A stretch of DNA of 64,000 nt, from the NCBI GenBank assembly GCA_036439915.1, contig GCA_036439915.1_3065.1; one strand, 5' to 3'. Made by a program: the position numbers and the translations under genes. This document shows, one piece after another, positions 18,168-26,631 of the stretch (position 1 is the stretch's first letter; the number at the start of each line of letters is the position of its first letter). The DNA is from a phage. The notes below the pieces were generated by a model. That model saw only the letters and a program-made list of their open reading frames with translations. It was not told where the DNA came from and searched no databases.

Positions 18168-20264
18168 TTATCCTTGAACGAACTTGTAAGGCATGTTTGT
18201 AATATCTATGCAAGACGCAATAATTCCGAGAGATGATTCTGCTTTCTGTTTAACATTTGATGAAACAAATGATGCAAAGTCAACTCTGTCTTCTATTTCA
18301 ATATCATCTGTCATTGCAACTACTTCACCAGTTTCCATTAGACGGTCACCGTCATAAATTACTGATTCGGTGAGTTCTTCCGTAGTCATAACTTCAGTTT
18401 GAATGAGTTTTGTATTATTAGATGTTGTTCCGTCATTATTAGAAGCATCAGTTATTTTATTAACTTTGACCATCAATCCGCGTGGTAGAATTACTTCAGC
18501 TTCTGTTGCTATTCCGAGACTTCCTGGATATACAACATTAACTTTATGAGCTCCATCAATTGCCCATCCTATTTGAACTTTAACGTATTCAGGATTTTCT
18601 TTATACGCTCTTATTTCGTTTGGATTAATAGTTATTCCTTCTTCATTTTTATCAACTGTTAATTCATTACGAGCTTCTGGTTCTAAAAGACCGATACCAG
18701 CATGTGTAATTCCAAAACGTCCAAAAATGATAGGAGTTAAAGAAGTAGATACAAAATTTCTGAAATAGAACACTTTATTTTTAACTAGCGCTTCGTATAT
18801 AGGAGCAGTCATACTTTGAGCACGATAAACTGTAATGCCTTCTGGTATACGGTCACCATTTTCAAAAGCTGAATCTAAATTATTTATCGCAGATTCAATT
18901 TCTTTTTCACTCATTACATCATATCGTTCTGGATTGTAACGACCCAAAAGAAGATTATTGATGTCAGTATATCCTGAACCACAATACTCTCTAATGCCGC
19001 GCTTTTGTGATGGAGTATATTTAGAACCATCACGGGCAATAGTAATATCAATCATTGGACCTGCACCAATTCCAGAAAAGCTATAAATCATTCGTTTGAG
19101 GAATTTAGTTTTTGCTGCGTTCCAGGAATTTTTAGTTATTTCTTCCCAGACTTCATCTGACTGCCCTTTACGGGTTTTATTATGTTTATCAAGCCAATTA
19201 TCTTTATATTCTTCAAAGAATTTATTAATAGCTGCTGCATACTTCTCTAAACATTTTATTGAAGTGGTTGGTTCATTTTTAATCGCATTGAGAATTACAT
19301 CTTTAATTTTTTCAGAAACTTCATTAACCTCACTTTTTGAAAAGAATTTATAGTCATAGTGAAGTTCATCTGCGGTTCCTTCGGCAATAATTTTTGCTGC
19401 CTTAGTTTTAGAAGCTAATGAATTAATTCCAAGCTTCATTTCTTCTGCTTCGGGAATTAAAGGAGCTGTAGCAGGTTTATTGAAATTAGCTGCGGTAGAT
19501 TCATATTTCTGGAATAATTCGCTTTCAAATCTAGAAGATTCTAATGACTGACTTTGCGCAATTGCTCTACGGGAAATTTTAACTTTAACGATTACAGCTT
19601 GGTCAGAACGTTTATCATTTTCTTGCGCAATAGATGCAGCAATTGCCTCATTTTTAGTTACTTGAGCTCCAGTATCTTTATTGATATAAACATCGCCGAC
19701 TTTCGATTCAACTTTAGTAAAGAGCTCGGTACTAATTTCCGGAACTCCTGGAATGTCTTCTAGTGATACATTTTTGCGATGTATAAGAATATATGCATAC
19801 TTTTTATCATAATCCCAGAGTTCCTTAAGAAGGACGTATCTTCCACCTGAACGACTACGGATAAGTCTATCAGCAATAACTTGAATTTGTCGAGCTTGAC
19901 CAGCAGTTTTAGACTTAAGAATACGGAGCATACAGGCATCAATTTTATACTGACGCATCGTCTGCATTGCAACAGTAAAAACTGAATTGATGTAATTAAT
20001 TGGGCTTGGACCGAGACCTTTTAATTTAGCAATTGAACCTTTAGCAGTTAATGTAAAAGGAACAATATGCATCATTTTATCGCCCATTTTTAAATCGCGA
20101 TTAGTATCACCTCCAGATGTATAGGTACATAAACGAAAGCCTGGTTGTTCAATTGCGTCATCAACGTGAACTGAAAAAATTTGTGGTATTTTCTTCTTTG
20201 GATTTAAGTTTGTAATCGGAAGAGTAGTATCTTCGTCAAATAATTCTGTAATAAGTTCCATCAT
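18168..20264 (-). CDS. alt: Alt ADP-ribosyltransferase (virion-packaged)
   Basis: 698 aa; starts MMELITELFD; ART motifs YRAQ, FVSTSL, AEVILPRG; late promoter upstream; adjacent to gene 30. Confidence 0.85.
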   Translation of the reverse strand: MMELITELFDEDTTLPITNLNPKKKIPQIFSVHVDDAIEQPGFRLCTYTSGGDTNRDLKMGDKMMHIVPFTLTAKGSIAKLKGLGPSPINYINSVFTVAMQTMRQYKIDACMLRILKSKTAGQARQIQVIADRLIRSRSGGRYVLLKELWDYDKKYAYILIHRKNVSLEDIPGVPEISTELFTKVESKVGDVYINKDTGAQVTKNEAIAASIAQENDKRSDQAVIVKVKISRRAIAQSQSLESSRFESELFQKYESTAANFNKPATAPLIPEAEEMKLGINSLASKTKAAKIIAEGTADELHYDYKFFSKSEVNEVSEKIKDVILNAIKNEPTTSIKCLEKYAAAINKFFEEYKDNWLDKHNKTRKGQSDEVWEEITKNSWNAAKTKFLKRMIYSFSGIGAGPMIDITIARDGSKYTPSQKRGIREYCGSGYTDINNLLLGRYNPERYDVMSEKEIESAINNLDSAFENGDRIPEGITVYRAQSMTAPIYEALVKNKVFYFRNFVSTSLTPIIFGRFGITHAGIGLLEPEARNELTVDKNEEGITINPNEIRAYKENPEYVKVQIGWAIDGAHKVNVVYPGSLGIATEAEVILPRGLMVKVNKITDASNNDGTTSNNTKLIQTEVMTTEELTESVIYDGDRLMETGEVVAMTDDIEIEDRVDFASFVSSNVKQKAESSLGIIASCIDITNMPYKFVQG

Positions 20265-20284
20265 ATCCTCTCTAGTGTTTATTC

Positions 20285-20292
20285 TATTTATA
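20285..20292 (-). promoter_or_regulatory. T4-type late promoter (TATAAATA) for alt
   Basis: Minus-strand TATAAATA about 20 nt upstream of alt ATG. Confidence 0.5.
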
Positions 20293-20313
20293 AAATTAAA
20301 GGCCCGAAGGCCT

Positions 20314-20502
20314 TTAATAATCTAGTGGTAAGAGAGTACGATATATTTCAAACTTTGGCCCTTTTTCATAGGCATCAAATGTTTCTGTAAATTTATTATA
20401 AGCATATGCATCTACAAATTCAAGAACGATTTGTGATACAGAAGTAGAAACATCTCCACCTTCTTTTTGAGCCACGACAATTGTTTCTAAGTAAGCTTTC
20501 AT
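20314..20502 (-). CDS. Hypothetical small protein between gene 30 and alt
   Basis: 62-aa ORF; start overlaps gene 30 stop. Confidence 0.5.
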   Translation of the reverse strand: MKAYLETIVVAQKEGGDVSTSVSQIVLEFVDAYAYNKFTETFDAYEKGPKFEIYRTLLPLDY

Positions 20503-21959
20503 AGACCAGTTACCTCATGAAAATCACCAAATACATCCTCGAATGTATTAGCTTTAGTTTTATCTTCACGTAAACGAATCGCAATCGGAAGAAATAATTT
20601 AACGTAATCAGTGCGGCCATCAGATTTTAACCAACCGTTGCATTCGCACTCTAGAATTTTTCCAATATAATAATTTTGTTTTTCCATAATGCGAGTACGG
20701 TCAAGTTCATGTGATTTTACGCCAGCTTTATCTTTTAAACCTGAACCGGCATTTACTTTAATTTTTCCACACTCTGATTCAAGAATAAATCCACCTGCTT
20801 TAGTAGGATCTTTACGGTGAGGATAAATTCCTACAATTTTTAAATCAACATCAATTACTTCTTTAAATTTATAGAGATTTTTTGAACGAGCATTTTCCCA
20901 CAATCCATCGGTATTTTTGAGAATAATACCTTCAAGACCTTGGTCAATATATTTTTTATAAATTACCTTAGCTTCATCTAGGTTATTTACTACCTGGTTT
21001 TCAATTAAAATTACTTTATCATATCCTGATGTCATTTGTTCTAGTTTAGAAAAACGTACATCATATTTTAAACGAAACGCCGGAAGACCGTATATTTCTA
21101 CCAACGGAACATAATCCCAGACCTGAAACTTCATGCATTTGGCTTCTTTTTCGGAAATGGTTCCTTTTAAGGATTTATTGGCGATTCCATTAGAAGCAGT
21201 ACGAGATTCCGCTACTTCGGCGAATTCTTTAGCTTTACTAATTTCAGGAGCATCAAAAAGAAAATCTAGGCCTTCTGGTTCCTTTTCAACTTGCTCATGG
21301 TATACCAATTCGCCATCAATTAACACACCTTCTGGATGAATCTGGCGGGCTTCAGCGGTCATTTTGATTAACTCTTCCTTAAGAAGATCTAATCCTAGGT
21401 ATTCATTGCCAGCTCGCGATAAAAGACGAACATCATCTAATTCATCACCTCGGACTTCAGCAAAACACCGAGCTCCATCTGCTTTTAACTGCGCAAAAGC
21501 TGGAAATTTGATATTCTTACTAATGCCTTTTTCATCATAAGAACTTGCAAGCATTTGAGGTTGTTCAGGAATTAAACCTGGCCAAACTTTGTTTGCAATA
21601 GATACTGATGCACCGCATTCAAGGTCTCGCATCATCACCCGACGCAAAACTTCAACATCATCTTTTTTACCGTCAGTAATATATCCAGTTAATTCCTCAA
21701 TTGCCGCATTTCCAGTCAATTTCCGAGTAGCTAATGTGAATTCAATGAAGTCAAGCATATCGGTAAGAGTCAACATTCCAAAACTCTGGGTAGCAATACC
21801 AGGTTTAGGCCATTTCTTGATATAATACTGTAACCCACGAGAATAAGTCAGACGATATACTCGTTTGAGCAATTCATTATCTTTATTCTTTTCAAGAATT
21901 GCTTGCTTTTGCTTAGTTGAACCAATAGATGCTATTTCATTCAGAATTTTAAGAATCAT
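20499..21959 (-). CDS. 30: ATP-dependent DNA ligase gp30
   Basis: 486 aa; adenylation motif KADGAR; N-terminus matches recalled T4 ligase. Confidence 0.9.
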   Translation of the reverse strand: MILKILNEIASIGSTKQKQAILEKNKDNELLKRVYRLTYSRGLQYYIKKWPKPGIATQSFGMLTLTDMLDFIEFTLATRKLTGNAAIEELTGYITDGKKDDVEVLRRVMMRDLECGASVSIANKVWPGLIPEQPQMLASSYDEKGISKNIKFPAFAQLKADGARCFAEVRGDELDDVRLLSRAGNEYLGLDLLKEELIKMTAEARQIHPEGVLIDGELVYHEQVEKEPEGLDFLFDAPEISKAKEFAEVAESRTASNGIANKSLKGTISEKEAKCMKFQVWDYVPLVEIYGLPAFRLKYDVRFSKLEQMTSGYDKVILIENQVVNNLDEAKVIYKKYIDQGLEGIILKNTDGLWENARSKNLYKFKEVIDVDLKIVGIYPHRKDPTKAGGFILESECGKIKVNAGSGLKDKAGVKSHELDRTRIMEKQNYYIGKILECECNGWLKSDGRTDYVKLFLPIAIRLREDKTKANTFEDVFGDFHEVTGL

Positions 21960-22225
21960 TGTTCATCCTTTAGAGTTTGGTTTACAGCTCTATTATAAAT
22001 CAATTCATCATTAAGCTCAGGCAAAGACTTATGATATGTAGTTCTAACTTTATTTCCTTGCATCCAGTGCTTGACGTAAATGAAACCTTGTTCTACACAT
22101 TTTTTAAAAATTCGTTCGTCTTTTTGAGCACGGAATTCTGGATTGCATCTAAAAAATTGATTTACGTGACCGTAATCACGTGTAGTATTACCTTCATTTT
22201 CATAAATAGTATGAACAACAAACAT
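21956..22225 (-). CDS. Hypothetical protein (position of T4 30.1)
   Basis: 89-aa ORF coupled to neighbours. Confidence 0.6.
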   Translation of the reverse strand: MFVVHTIYENEGNTTRDYGHVNQFFRCNPEFRAQKDERIFKKCVEQGFIYVKHWMQGNKVRTTYHKSLPELNDELIYNRAVNQTLKDEQ

Positions 22226-23061
22226 TAGAATGCTCCTTGAAAAATATTATCACCACTAGTAGGTCTATTATACAAATACTCTATGCCACCAGGTTTAATA
22301 TAGTTCCATGTCTGAAACGGATATGGATGATATGGATGATATAGATTATAAGGATTAAATCCAGGCGTTCTCCAGGTAGTGTTCCAAGGAAAAGAATCGT
22401 TTTTAACCATCTTCTCAATTACATCTTTTATAGCTTTTTCACTATCAAAATTTTCTTTATTTTCCTTCGGTGAAAAAAGCTTATTTTCTACATCATTCCA
22501 TGTATAAACTCGCTGAGCAGTTTTTGGAATATTGTCACGTTCTCCTCGAGCCATCCAATAAACCGGAACATTTAATATTTCACTCGCGTGGTCGCAGTGG
22601 TGAGCGAGATCGTCAATATAACAAATTACGTTATATTTCTCTTTTGCCTTTTTAAACAACTCTTCTTTTGAAGAATCATGACCACACATCATTACTTCTG
22701 AGAAGGCACCAGGAAAAAGAGCATTCAAATTAAATTGACGATTTAATAGAGCATCAATAGAATCACCCAATGCTGTAACAGCTACAAAATTATAATCTTC
22801 TTTTAATTTGTTAATTACACACAGGGCATCTTTATACGGAGACAAGTAACGAATAAAATCTGAACGATTGTATTTTTCAATTAACTTGACGCCAAGTTCT
22901 TCGTCACAATTAAAGAGTTTACCTGGAGAAATAAATTTCTCATCTTGGATCATTTTTAAAATATGTTCTAATGGAAGATTATATTTCTGAGCAAAATAAG
23001 GAAGGCCTGATTGCCAGCTTAAACATACTCCATCAATATCAGTCAAAATAGTTGGCTTCAT
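22225..23061 (-). CDS. HAD-like phosphatase/nucleotidase-like protein (position of T4 30.2)
   Basis: 278 aa; N-terminal LTDIDGV resembles HAD motif I. Confidence 0.5.
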   Translation of the reverse strand: MKPTILTDIDGVCLSWQSGLPYFAQKYNLPLEHILKMIQDEKFISPGKLFNCDEELGVKLIEKYNRSDFIRYLSPYKDALCVINKLKEDYNFVAVTALGDSIDALLNRQFNLNALFPGAFSEVMMCGHDSSKEELFKKAKEKYNVICYIDDLAHHCDHASEILNVPVYWMARGERDNIPKTAQRVYTWNDVENKLFSPKENKENFDSEKAIKDVIEKMVKNDSFPWNTTWRTPGFNPYNLYHPYHPYPFQTWNYIKPGGIEYLYNRPTSGDNIFQGAF

Positions 23062-23522
23062 AGAGAGTCTCTTAATAGGTTTAACACATCAATAAATTCA
23101 GCTTCGGTTAGTATTGTATCATCTTTTGTTAGACCACTAGCCATGCTGTGCTTCAAAACTTTTCCTTTCGAGGCTTGTAATGCATCACGAAAGCCCCTGT
23201 TTTGGATCGCTGCTTCAAAATATGCATTTGTGTATAATTCTTTCCATGCTGGAGAGTATCTTGAAAATGGAACTCCAAGCCAGAACAACGTGCCACGGTC
23301 CTGAGCTCTAGCATAAGACCTTCCAGCTTGTTGAGCGGCAAGCCCGGATAACCCAAATATACGTCTTTGCTGTTCAACATTTTTCACCTTACACCCTTGG
23401 AGGAATCCTTCGAGACCTCCAAATTGGATACCGTCCATAACAAAAGGCCATTGGGCGAAATTGCTTAATGCACATGATGGCCATCTAAAATTGCTTCTTA
23501 TCTCTAGCTCAGACATTTTCAA
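23058..23522 (-). CDS. NADAR/YbiA-like (DUF1768-like) protein (position of T4 30.3)
   Basis: 154 aa; LSNFAQWPFVMDGIQF...EGFLQGCK resembles YbiA FSNFAAWP...DG...EHYFQAQK. Confidence 0.55.
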   Translation of the reverse strand: MKMSELEIRSNFRWPSCALSNFAQWPFVMDGIQFGGLEGFLQGCKVKNVEQQRRIFGLSGLAAQQAGRSYARAQDRGTLFWLGVPFSRYSPAWKELYTNAYFEAAIQNRGFRDALQASKGKVLKHSMASGLTKDDTILTEAEFIDVLNLLRDSL

Positions 23523-23715
23523 TACTTATAATTTCAACATCAGCCCAATGACCATAGCAAGGAAGACGAAATTCAACTGGCCAGTTAGGGTCCTTTTCTA
23601 ATATAATAGACTTAACTTGTGGTTCTTCATGTTCATCGGTATACGGACCTTTATACGTTACTTTATATGTGACCTTAATGTACTGAATTCCAAAAATCTT
23701 ATTAATTATATTCAT
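23509..23715 (-). CDS. Hypothetical protein
   Basis: 68-aa ORF in tightly packed early-gene run. Confidence 0.5.
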   Translation of the reverse strand: MNIINKIFGIQYIKVTYKVTYKGPYTDEHEEPQVKSIILEKDPNWPVEFRLPCYGHWADVEIISIENV

Positions 23716-23909
23716 ACTAATTCCTTTAATCCGTAAATAGGAGACAATTCATCACCCATACGAAGGTCTTCATTTCCATCTACCCAGGAAACAATATAAG
23801 CCTCTTTTATTTGAACACCACTCCATTTAAATGGAGGTAGAACCTTAGAAATTAATCCAGGTATACCAACTCCCTTTAATTCAACAGTTTGACCTAAAAA
23901 GAATTTCAT
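23712..23909 (-). CDS. Hypothetical protein
   Basis: 65-aa ORF, overlapping start/stop. Confidence 0.5.
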   Translation of the reverse strand: MKFFLGQTVELKGVGIPGLISKVLPPFKWSGVQIKEAYIVSWVDGNEDLRMGDELSPIYGLKELV

Positions 23910-24196
23910 TAGAACCTCATCTGAAAACCATGCGATTTAACATTACCGCCGCCAATATCAGAAATATTAATTTCACGCGCAATTGAAGGGTCAATGTCAA
24001 TTTCACGATTAAGTTTAGCGATAGCTAAAGTATCACGCCCATTTACTGTACGGAATTCTAAAGGACAAACCACATCAACGTAATTTTTAATCGATTCACT
24101 GGTAGGCTGCAAATGAGCAGGAAGGTCTTTAGGTGCCTTTGAGAAAACCACTTCACAAAAATTTTTGCGGGTGTCAAAATAAGTAGTCATAAACAT
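23909..24196 (-). CDS. Hypothetical protein
   Basis: 95-aa ORF preceded by hairpin and SD. Confidence 0.55.
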   Translation of the reverse strand: MFMTTYFDTRKNFCEVVFSKAPKDLPAHLQPTSESIKNYVDVVCPLEFRTVNGRDTLAIAKLNREIDIDPSIAREINISDIGGGNVKSHGFQMRF

Positions 24197-24237
24197 AATA
24201 TTTTCCTCAGTAAGGGGCCGAAGCCCCTCATTTTATT

Positions 24238-24603
24238 TTAAATATCAAATTCGTTAAGAACTACATCAAAGATTGCTTCAAGATGCTCAGGTTTAGCTCT
24301 GTTACTCAGAATATGACGAATCCAAGTTTTAACCAAAAGCTTGCGATTATCACCATTCCAGCAAGGATGAGTCCCTAAATCGCGTTGACGAAAATCATCA
24401 TCTAAAGCGATTTTAAAATTTGAACCTTCCACTGTGATTGAAACCGTGATGCCATTTTCAAATCGCATATAAACGTAGTTAGGAGTCATATACTGTTCAA
24501 TTTCGCATACTGATCCATTTTGATGTTTCCAAAGGCAAATAGTATCAATAGAACCTGCAATACCATTAGAAACATATTTACGTTCAAAGTTGATGTAGTT
24601 CAT
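24238..24603 (-). CDS. Hypothetical protein
   Basis: 121-aa ORF. Confidence 0.55.
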   Translation of the reverse strand: MNYINFERKYVSNGIAGSIDTICLWKHQNGSVCEIEQYMTPNYVYMRFENGITVSITVEGSNFKIALDDDFRQRDLGTHPCWNGDNRKLLVKTWIRHILSNRAKPEHLEAIFDVVLNEFDI

Positions 24604-24623
24604 TTTTGTTCTCCGAGATGTTT

Positions 24624-24669
24624 AATTGCGGTACAGGTATATAATATCATATCCTGTACCAAAGTAAAC
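24624..24669 (-). promoter_or_regulatory. Early-type promoter with its -10 inside an 8-bp inverted repeat
   Basis: Minus GTTTAC, 17-nt spacer, TATTAT; inverted repeat GGTACAGG / CCTGTACC flanks the -10. Confidence 0.4.
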
Positions 24670-24671
24670 AA

Positions 24672-25004
24672 TTATTTTACTACTTTCCAGTGCTTCATGT
24701 CAAGTTTACCGACTTTTTTCATCTTCTCAATTAAGCGTTCGGCACGTTGGCGAGCTGTAACATAATACCATTCACCTAATTCATTTTGTTCAATTTTTCC
24801 AACGATTACTGTATTCAATTCATAAATCCAACCAGTAAAGAAATTATGAACTTGAATTGTAAAGGTGAAATCTGTTCCCATACCTTCTGTTGTTTCTACT
24901 TCAATAATATCACCTTCAACTGCTATTAAGAACCACATAGTTTCGTTATATTCACCATTGAAGCATTTAGCTTTAACTGCAGCGTTCAGATTAATCGTTT
25001 TCAT
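24672..25004 (-). CDS. Hypothetical protein
   Basis: 110-aa ORF with early-type promoter upstream. Confidence 0.55.
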   Translation of the reverse strand: MKTINLNAAVKAKCFNGEYNETMWFLIAVEGDIIEVETTEGMGTDFTFTIQVHNFFTGWIYELNTVIVGKIEQNELGEWYYVTARQRAERLIEKMKKVGKLDMKHWKVVK

Positions 25005-25031
25005 TTTATTCTCCTTTGTTTGTGTAAGATA

Positions 25032-25061
25032 ATACTATCACAAAGGAACCATACTGTAAAC
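25032..25061 (-). promoter_or_regulatory. Early-type promoter
   Basis: Minus GTTTAC, 18-nt spacer, TAGTAT. Confidence 0.4.
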
Positions 25062-25075
25062 AACTTTATGCAATC

Positions 25076-25110
25076 TTTGGAAAATAAAAAAGGACTCCCG
25101 AAGGAGTCCT
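25076..25110 (-). terminator. Intrinsic terminator
   Basis: Stem AGGACTCC / GGAGTCCT with CGAA loop; long U-run on minus strand. Confidence 0.6.
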
Positions 25111-25114
25111 CAAC

Positions 25115-25333
25115 TTATGCTTTCTGCTTACCAAAACGAGAAGCATCATCTCGAAGAACCGCACGTGCTCGGCGCATGATCTTCTCAACAGTTTGATTGA
25201 TACGAGAGTTCGACCCACGCTTGTAGCCAGCGCGTTTAGAATCACCAACTTTCTTTTCAACTGCTTTCTTTGCTTTAGCTTGTTTTGCCATTATAAATTC
25301 TCTTTTAAATGAAAATGCAGGACTTATTGGCAT
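25115..25333 (-). CDS. Small highly basic protein
   Basis: 72-aa ORF (possibly 58 aa from internal ATG); Lys/Arg-rich; terminator follows. Confidence 0.5.
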   Translation of the reverse strand: MPISPAFSFKREFIMAKQAKAKKAVEKKVGDSKRAGYKRGSNSRINQTVEKIMRRARAVLRDDASRFGKQKA

Positions 25334-25534
25334 TGCCTGCGCAAGCCCTCAAGGGGAACATAGGTTTTGGATATTTAACGACAGGATAACCATAAACCCG
25401 TCATCATTCACATTCAAGAGGTACACCATAAAACTGCCGGGGTCTTAAAACTATAATGATTCGCAAATCATTAATCAGACAGTTCGATGGCTCCTCGATT
25501 TTAGCTCACACTAAGGCAGTGAATCTCCAATAAA

Positions 25535-25783
25535 TTACTTCAGTGTTACCACAAAGTGACGAACTGCTTTTCGTGCAGCAGAAGCCAGAGGCTTAGCATA
25601 CTTAAGTTCATCTTTTTCCTGAAGCTCAGCAGCTAATGCAGTTTGAGCAGGATTCAGATGTTTGAAATAACGCAGGATTTCAAGAGCTTCGGCTTCAACA
25701 TCAATAGATGCGCCATAGTTTTCGTGACCATTATTCCATGCGTTTCGTTGCAGTTCAAGAGCGTGTTGTAATTGTTTAATCAT
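25535..25783 (-). CDS. rIII: rIII lysis-inhibition accessory protein
   Basis: 82 aa (T4 rIII length), upstream of gene 31 as in T4. Confidence 0.8.
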   Translation of the reverse strand: MIKQLQHALELQRNAWNNGHENYGASIDVEAEALEILRYFKHLNPAQTALAAELQEKDELKYAKPLASAARKAVRHFVVTLK

Positions 25784-25930
25784 TTAAAAATTCTCGTTAG
25801 AGATTAAAACTCGGTAGTCACGTTCTTCTGAATTTCATCTTCTTTCGACAGATCTCTCAGTTGTAGACTACCACATAGAATTGTTCGGTTAACTTATTAT
25901 TCCGACACCCAATTCATATTATTATTTATA

Positions 25931-26266
25931 TCACTTATAAAGACACGGAATAGCTTTATAGTGACAAGTAACGAATTTTTGTTTAATTTCTTTTGGCTGC
26001 TTAAGACCCAGAGCTACAAAAGGATGCGGAACATTTCGAATTTGACCAACTGGAAGAGAAGTCAAATCACCAACTTCGCAGAAACCTTCAGGAACATCAG
26101 GACCAACAGAGTGAACTACACACAGTTCAGGAACTTCACCTTGAACACGTTTACCGATAATAAGTCCTGATTCTGTAACTTCTTCATCACCGGCTTGTGC
26201 AGGTTCAGAAACTAAAATAACATATTCACCGACAGCACGAATTGGTAGCTGTTGTACTTCAGACAT
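25931..26266 (-). CDS. 31: Co-chaperonin gp31 (GroES analog)
   Basis: 111 aa (T4 gp31 length). Confidence 0.85.
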
Positions 26267-26322
26267 CGTTTTTCCTTTTTGTTAACAGATGAATTAATAA
26301 TAACAAATAATTCTTAAAGCAT

Positions 26323-26631
26323 TTATTTACCAATAAATTGAAGCAAATGCTCAACTTTCATACCATTAACAGAAATCAATTTGTCAATAGAAAAACCTCG
26401 CCACTCGCCAAGCTCAACATCAAATACTGGAATCATATCAGTAGATTCTTTCCGAGCAGATTCAGTCAATTTACCAGTTTGCATGGTTGGCATAAAGTCA
26501 GCATCACGAGTACCTTTCATAGTACGAATAGTACCATCAGACTTTTCAAAAACTACGTTTGAAACACCCATGGACAATTTAGTTTTCAAAATTTCACGAA
26601 TTGCTACTTTCTTTTCAGTTGTCAGTTTCAT
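26323..26631 (-). CDS. Hypothetical protein (position of T4 31.1)
   Basis: 102-aa ORF. Confidence 0.55.
   Translation of the reverse strand: MKLTTEKKVAIREILKTKLSMGVSNVVFEKSDGTIRTMKGTRDADFMPTMQTGKLTESARKESTDMIPVFDVELGEWRGFSIDKLISVNGMKVEHLLQFIGK

Follow-up and report, generated by a model that had tools for sequence, protein, structure and literature searches.

The locus lies in a stretch of phage DNA of 64,000 nucleotides (contig GCA_036439915.1_3065.1; hereafter the window) which, read from its sequence, is DNA of a Tequatrovirus, i.e. a T4-like phage. The region shares about 97% DNA identity with many Tequatrovirus genomes, and its genes follow the order known from T4: alt, alt.1, 30, 30.1, 30.2, 30.3, 30.4 and, further on, 31 and cd. 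The minus-strand open reading frame at 23058..23522 contains the string LSNFAQWPFVMDGIQFGGLEGFLQGCK, which the original prediction, made from the letters of the sequence, had read as a NADAR-like signature. The frame and the string are both there. Counted from its TTG, the frame has the 154 aa originally given; an ATG at 23516, two codons inside, is the likelier start and yields a product of 152 aa. This ATG is favoured because the T4 orthologue (152 aa) is annotated from it, because the published catalytic residues then land on E36 and K43, and because it overlaps the stop codon of the upstream gene 30.4 (ATGTCTGA). The features of the locus are collected in Table 1.

Table 1. Positions of adfN, its key residues and neighbouring genes in the window.
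Feature	Position	Strand	Basis
Alt-like ADP-ribosyltransferase gene, full-length, 685 aa	16107..18164	-	42% identical to tandem partner
Alt-like ADP-ribosyltransferase gene, full-length, 698 aa	18168..20264	-	PF03496 confirmed
Gene 30.2, predicted HAD-fold, like 5'(3')-deoxyribonucleotidases; context only	22225..23061	-	96% identical to T4 gp30.2; homologue residues; Foldseek
adfN (T4 gene 30.3), 152-aa NADAR-fold protein, very probably a DNA ADP-ribosylglycohydrolase	23058..23516 incl. stop codon	-	Homology to T4 gp30.3
Residues 138-152, intact C-terminal helix (absent from the defective RB69 allele)	23061..23105	-	Model helix 138-151, high confidence; ungapped alignment to T4
His123 codon, phage-clade replacement of the last-strand Glu/Asp of other NADARs	23148..23150	-	Invariant in 58 homologues; PMC11125620
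Lys43 codon, catalytic / ADP-ribose-contacting (K43A weakens T4 AdfN)	23388..23390	-	At least 90% conserved; PMC11825919
Glu36 codon, catalytic (E36A weakens T4 AdfN)	23409..23411	-	Invariant in 58 homologues; mutagenesis PMC11825919

In the Pfam scan the protein matches all of the PF08010 (Phage_30_3) model, from position 1 to 138 of 138, with 234.1 bits and E=5e-70, the curated cut-off being 36 bits; a match of this kind is far beyond chance. Its alignment with T4 gp30.3 is ungapped and identical at 150/152 residues, the substitutions being K107R and I125M, and Shigella phage ESh17 encodes a protein identical to the window product. The genes of the window and T4 differ at 24 nucleotides. Since 22 of these differences are synonymous, gene 30.3 is under purifying selection. 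An out-of-frame ORF inside adfN (23153..23380, minus strand) corresponds to the annotated T4 gene 30.3' (75 aa). Its product differs from the T4 version at 14/75 residues (81% identity), against 99% identity in the adfN frame that it overlaps. Such divergence is that of a non-coding frame, and 30.3' is probably no real gene.

PF08010 was the sole Pfam match of the window protein, which by itself did not match the NADAR family PF08719 at E<=0.1 in the Pfam scan. No NCBIfam match was obtained for the products of 30.3 and 30.2, and the single-sequence PDB search with the window 30.3 protein gave an insignificant best match (E=0.57). To obtain a profile of the gp30.3 family, 58 homologues with identities down to 35% were combined. 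In the PDB this profile significantly matched E. coli YbiA alone (2b3w, E=0.0023); the alignment spans the quoted motif, and E36 and K43 are aligned with the E and K of YbiA SEHYFQAQKF. PF08719 is reached individually by 21/58 members of the family, with a best E of 1.5e-7. As the family-level and structural tests are positive, the missing direct match to PF08719 is no evidence against NADAR membership: gp30.3 belongs to the NADAR superfamily, and the family guessed from the motif was the right one. The PF08719 search proposed together with that guess had a divided outcome, with no direct match for the window protein and a match at the level of the family. The lack of a profile hit had been named as grounds for refutation, a rule that, applied to a plain Pfam scan, would have wrongly discarded the assignment, given that membership is shown despite the absent match.

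The conserved catalytic residues, whose absence had been named as another reason to discard the assignment, are present as E36, K43 and an H123 of the phage type. No variation occurs at E36 or H123 among the 58 homologues, K43 is conserved in at least 90% of them, and the Glu and Lys belong to an E-x(6)-K motif found in the window protein. The AF2 model of the 30.3 protein has a pLDDT of 93.9. It places H123 (in ...KVLKHS...) just past the last strand, residues 120-122. The last-strand position is occupied by Glu in NADARs of the YbiA type, by Asp in the BC4488/DarG1 type and by His in the phage clade (PMC11125620). The gene identity, fold, catalytic residues, intact C-terminus and purifying selection are all established by the present analysis. 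The PHROG family containing gp30.3, phrog_652, has a profile length of 296, about twice that of the protein, which matches its C-terminal half (positions 126-272). Some gp30.3 homologues are about 200 aa long, such as P0027/P0028 (201 aa). It follows from the profile length and these homologues that N-terminally extended or fused forms exist.

The gene is already known: work of 2024-2025 characterised its product as AdfN, which belongs to the phage clade within the NADAR superfamily. Mapping by Johannesman et al. (Nat Commun 2025; PMC11825919) traced the resistance of T2 and T4 to DarTG1 back to gene 30.3, which they renamed adfN (anti-DarT factor NADAR). Deletion of adfN left both phages unable to plaque on E. 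coli with DarTG1, and RB69 was restored on such cells by ectopic adfN (PMC11825919). Purified AdfN stripped DarT1-modified DNA of ADP-ribose, whereas the E36A mutant did not; T4 AdfN was likewise impaired by K43A and by a C-terminal truncation mimicking the RB69 allele, which is frameshifted and ends 15 residues early (PMC11825919). No interaction of AdfN with DarT1 was detected, and the thymidine modifier DarTG2 was not countered (PMC11825919). Cihlova et al. (Toxins 2024; PMC11125620) found independently that the T4 phage NADAR hydrolyses guanosine-ADPr in vitro and has no activity on thymidine-ADPr. The methods of that paper give the T4 construct as residues 1-208 (PMC11125620); T4 gp30.3 has 152 aa.

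The window copy agrees with T4 gp30.3, the AdfN of these studies (PMC11825919, PMC11125620), in gene, genomic position and length, and has E36, K43, H123 and the C-terminal helix in common with it; it differs by K107R, I125M and the 22 synonymous changes. Because residues 138-152 form an intact terminal helix in the window copy, an active allele is to be expected here. K107R and I125M set it apart from the allele studied experimentally, and so we infer its activity; the enzymatic function and the counter-defence phenotype would carry over from the T4 allele, 99% identical, on which the published experiments were done. The ORF is Tequatrovirus gene 30.3, i.e. adfN, and very probably encodes a small stand-alone NADAR-fold enzyme that counters DarTG1 by hydrolysing guanine-ADP-ribose in DNA. 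When a host carrying DarTG1 is infected, the DarT1 toxin would ADP-ribosylate guanine bases of the phage DNA and block its replication. AdfN would hydrolyse the guanine-ADP-ribose bond, as the host NADAR antitoxin DarG1 does, and replication would go on with the restored DNA. AdfN would neither bind the toxin nor act on thymidine-ADP-ribose, the DarT2 product. By analogy with T4, this particular phage would owe DarTG1 resistance to adfN. Two roles had originally been proposed for the protein. The counter-defence role agrees with the reversal of DarT1 guanine ADP-ribosylation by the 99%-identical T4 protein (PMC11825919, PMC11125620); for the other, modulation of the phage's own ADP-ribosylation, no evidence was found.

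AdfN acts like the NADAR antitoxin of DarTG1, DarG1 (the G. lovleyi NADAR, PDB 8bat, is an example), but stands alone, DarT genes being absent from its surroundings. A DarT1-toxin operon partner was not found next to 30.3, the neighbours of which are 30.4 and the HAD-like 30.2, and neither the 30.3 nor the 30.2 product matched any PADLOC model. Unlike DarG1, AdfN has no N-terminal extension (152 aa versus a chain of 219 residues), carries His instead of Asp in the last strand (PMC11125620) and fails to replace DarG1 in uninfected cells (PMC11825919). Hence adfN is an orphan antitoxin-like gene and not a component of a DarTG1 system. The other anti-DarT factor, AdfA (T-even gp61.2), shares with AdfN the target DarTG1 and the phage group (PMC11825919). 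It is an unrelated protein that binds DarT1, is non-enzymatic and is secondary to AdfN in T4 (PMC11825919).

Rescue from DarT toxicity by expression of the protein, suggested earlier as a check, has been published for T4 AdfN with a negative outcome: both groups found that the phage protein did not rescue uninfected E. coli from DarT1 (PMC11825919, PMC11125620). T5 and Bas25 were helped just slightly by AdfN, and this slight effect together with the failure in uninfected cells suggests a further T-even factor (PMC11825919). AdfN is therefore fully working in T-even infection only, and the mechanism has a phage-specific component besides AdfN.

One candidate for this component is the product of the adjacent gene 30.2. 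The 278-aa ORF 22225..23061 with LTDIDGV, to which a HAD-type motif had been ascribed, is present; its ATG shares bases with the stop codon of 30.3 (ATGA). The HAD call was borne out by the residues, the family matches and the modelled structure. The four catalytic motifs DxDx(T/V), T/S, K and DD are recognised in gp30.2: all of 45 homologues share D8, D10, K132, D150 and D151, and T96 is conserved in at least 90% of them. PF00702 or PF06941 (NT5C) is weakly matched by 6-7/45 family members; the window gp30.2 itself has no direct Pfam or NCBIfam match. Searches of the PDB gave insignificant best matches both with the single gp30.2 sequence (E=1.4) and with the family profile, for which the best match was a 5'(3')-deoxyribonucleotidase (E=0.14). 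Residues 1-190 form the core of the model, with a pLDDT of more than 90, and Foldseek found 109 PDB matches for it at E<=0.001; the top 50 were all of HAD type, the best one being the cdN 2jao at 3e-8. From the conserved residues and the model, gp30.2 is assigned to the proteins with a Rossmann-like, capped HAD fold, closest to 5'(3')-deoxyribonucleotidases. Its residues from about 200 to 278 (22225..22460, minus strand) make up a tail, modelled with low confidence, in which proline and aromatics abound (…NPYNLYHPYHPYPFQTWNY…), which varies greatly in length among homologues; many forms of about 200 aa have no tail. The literature search for a gp30.2 function returned nothing relevant.

That gp30.2 is the T-even-specific factor needed by T4 AdfN for full activity outside the test tube could be proposed, though as a long shot; it might process the released ADP-ribose or nucleotide product, or stabilise or localise AdfN. 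The confinement of full AdfN activity to T-even infection (PMC11825919) fits this proposal, as does the ATGA overlap of the adfN stop with the 30.2 start. The genes are also adjacent in Tequatrovirus, in Acinetobacter phages and in phages SP18 and RB32, and they are almost equally distributed (30.2 in 1440 and 30.3 in 1511 phage records, with the same host breakdown). However, such similar distributions are expected anyway because both are widespread Straboviridae genes, so that co-occurrence is confounded by shared ancestry, and start/stop overlaps are the rule across the gene block. Moreover, the two genes lie about 57 kb apart in Aeromonas phage PS49, no 30.2 stands beside 30.3 in MIZ5, Mineola, P10VF or RSP15, and equally eligible T-even genes number well over a hundred.

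Six distant 30.3 loci were compared, namely those of Acj61, MIZ5, Mineola, RSP15, P10VF and AS-szw. Among the six, 30.2 adjoins 30.3 in Acinetobacter phage Acj61 only. The 30.3 homologue of MIZ5 abuts the ligase gene directly, and that of Rhizobium phage vB_RleM_P10VF is situated beside a helicase. The P10VF homologue (L004:5004-5465), which aligns with 99% of the query at 38% identity, bears the label 'putative homing endonuclease', probably a misannotation. The unrelated Klebsiella phage Mineola (L003:565-5835) and Ralstonia phage RSP15 (L005:571-9762) have the homologue within a tRNA cluster, a variable region that also contains homing endonucleases. In Aeromonas phage AS-szw (L006:5001-9509) it immediately precedes the genes of a putative PRPP synthetase and of a nicotinamide phosphoribosyltransferase. 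The latter two constitute an NAD-salvage module and, with 30.3, may form a cluster of NAD/ADP-ribose counter-measures. Given these varied neighbours and the routine start/stop overlaps, the position of 30.3 beside 30.2 and near alt is a matter of T4-type gene order. Conserved operon coupling of 30.2 with 30.3 was considered and rejected, as the neighbours differ in the six distant loci and some genomes have the two genes widely separated.

Scanned for promoters and terminators, 20200..26400 showed no excess over shuffled sequence (25 promoters versus 23.0±3.9; 5 terminators versus 3.6±1.8). The best sigma-70-like match of the scanned region, TTGACA-18-TAAAAT (11/12), is at 24674..24703 on the minus strand, just upstream of gene 30.7. 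On the same strand, a strong hairpin followed by a T-run occurs at 25090..25111, just downstream of a 72-aa ORF (25115..25333). With counts not above those of shuffled sequence, the match and the hairpin are only candidate boundaries of a transcription unit running from 30.7 to 30.1.

The pair of alt genes postulated nearby is real, consisting of two full-length Alt-like genes that are 42% identical. T4 differs in having one alt, accompanied by alt.-1 and alt.-2, short remnants that its annotation ascribes to an old partial duplication, whereas this phage has a second full-length paralogue. That the second copy is kept intact and strongly diverged suggests a different target range. The distance to adfN is greater than the 1.2 kb first given: 2794 bp separate the start of alt (20264) from the stop of 30.3 (23058), with alt.1, the DNA ligase gene, 30.1 and 30.2 in between. 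The proximity had been used as a functional argument, and that argument falls, since neither the linkage to alt nor the adjacency to 30.2 persists in distant relatives.

It is very improbable that the main job of the protein is to erase ADP-ribosylation by the phage's own transferases (the Alt paralogues, ModA/ModB), tuning host takeover rather than countering defence. This would accord with two full-length Alt-like transferase genes 2.8 kb off in the same orientation and with alt near 30.3 in Acinetobacter phage Acj61 as well; however, alt and 30.3 are neighbours only where T4-type gene order persists. T4 Alt modifies arginine on proteins. The activity demonstrated for T4 AdfN and other NADARs is directed at guanine in DNA and does not extend to thymidine-ADPr (PMC11125620, PMC11825919), and DarTG1 fully explains the adfN deletion phenotype (PMC11825919). 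A functional link between AdfN and Alt was consequently rejected: the neighbours differ in the six distant loci, and nothing favours action on Alt targets.

Still less credence can be given to a housekeeping N-glycosidase of the YbiA type, which would act on riboflavin-pathway intermediates or on small NAD/ADP-ribose-derived metabolites and not on DNA. E. coli YbiA (PDB 2b3w; PF08719 NADAR/DUF1768) has been linked to N-glycosidase action on riboflavin intermediates and to housekeeping roles (PMC11825919, PMC11125620), and AdfN is about 21% identical to it. However, YbiA carries Glu in the last strand where the phage clade has His, and the published phylogeny sets the phage clade nearest the DarT1-associated NADARs (PMC11825919). 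Besides, the T4 protein was directly shown to de-ADP-ribosylate DNA, with a phage phenotype (PMC11825919). As for an inactive or decaying copy, functionless in this phage as in RB69, the frameshift of the RB69 allele and the truncated or fused PF08010 fragments common in databases (e.g. P0007, P0013, P0016, P0017) would allow for it, but a frame open through all 152 codons, the presence of all catalytic residues and of the terminal helix, and 22/24 synonymous substitutions versus T4 make it a negligible prospect.

DNA ADP-ribose removal directed against DarTG1 is therefore retained as the very probable function of the window gene. The remote NADAR signature can be read from the raw sequence, whereas a plain Pfam scan files the protein under an uninformative family name. 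Most Tequatrovirus and other phage GenBank records label the gene 'hypothetical protein', and their annotation can be upgraded to adfN. As published in 2024-2025, adfN is a clear case of a phage orphan antitoxin-like enzyme that undoes the DNA modification made by a defence system.
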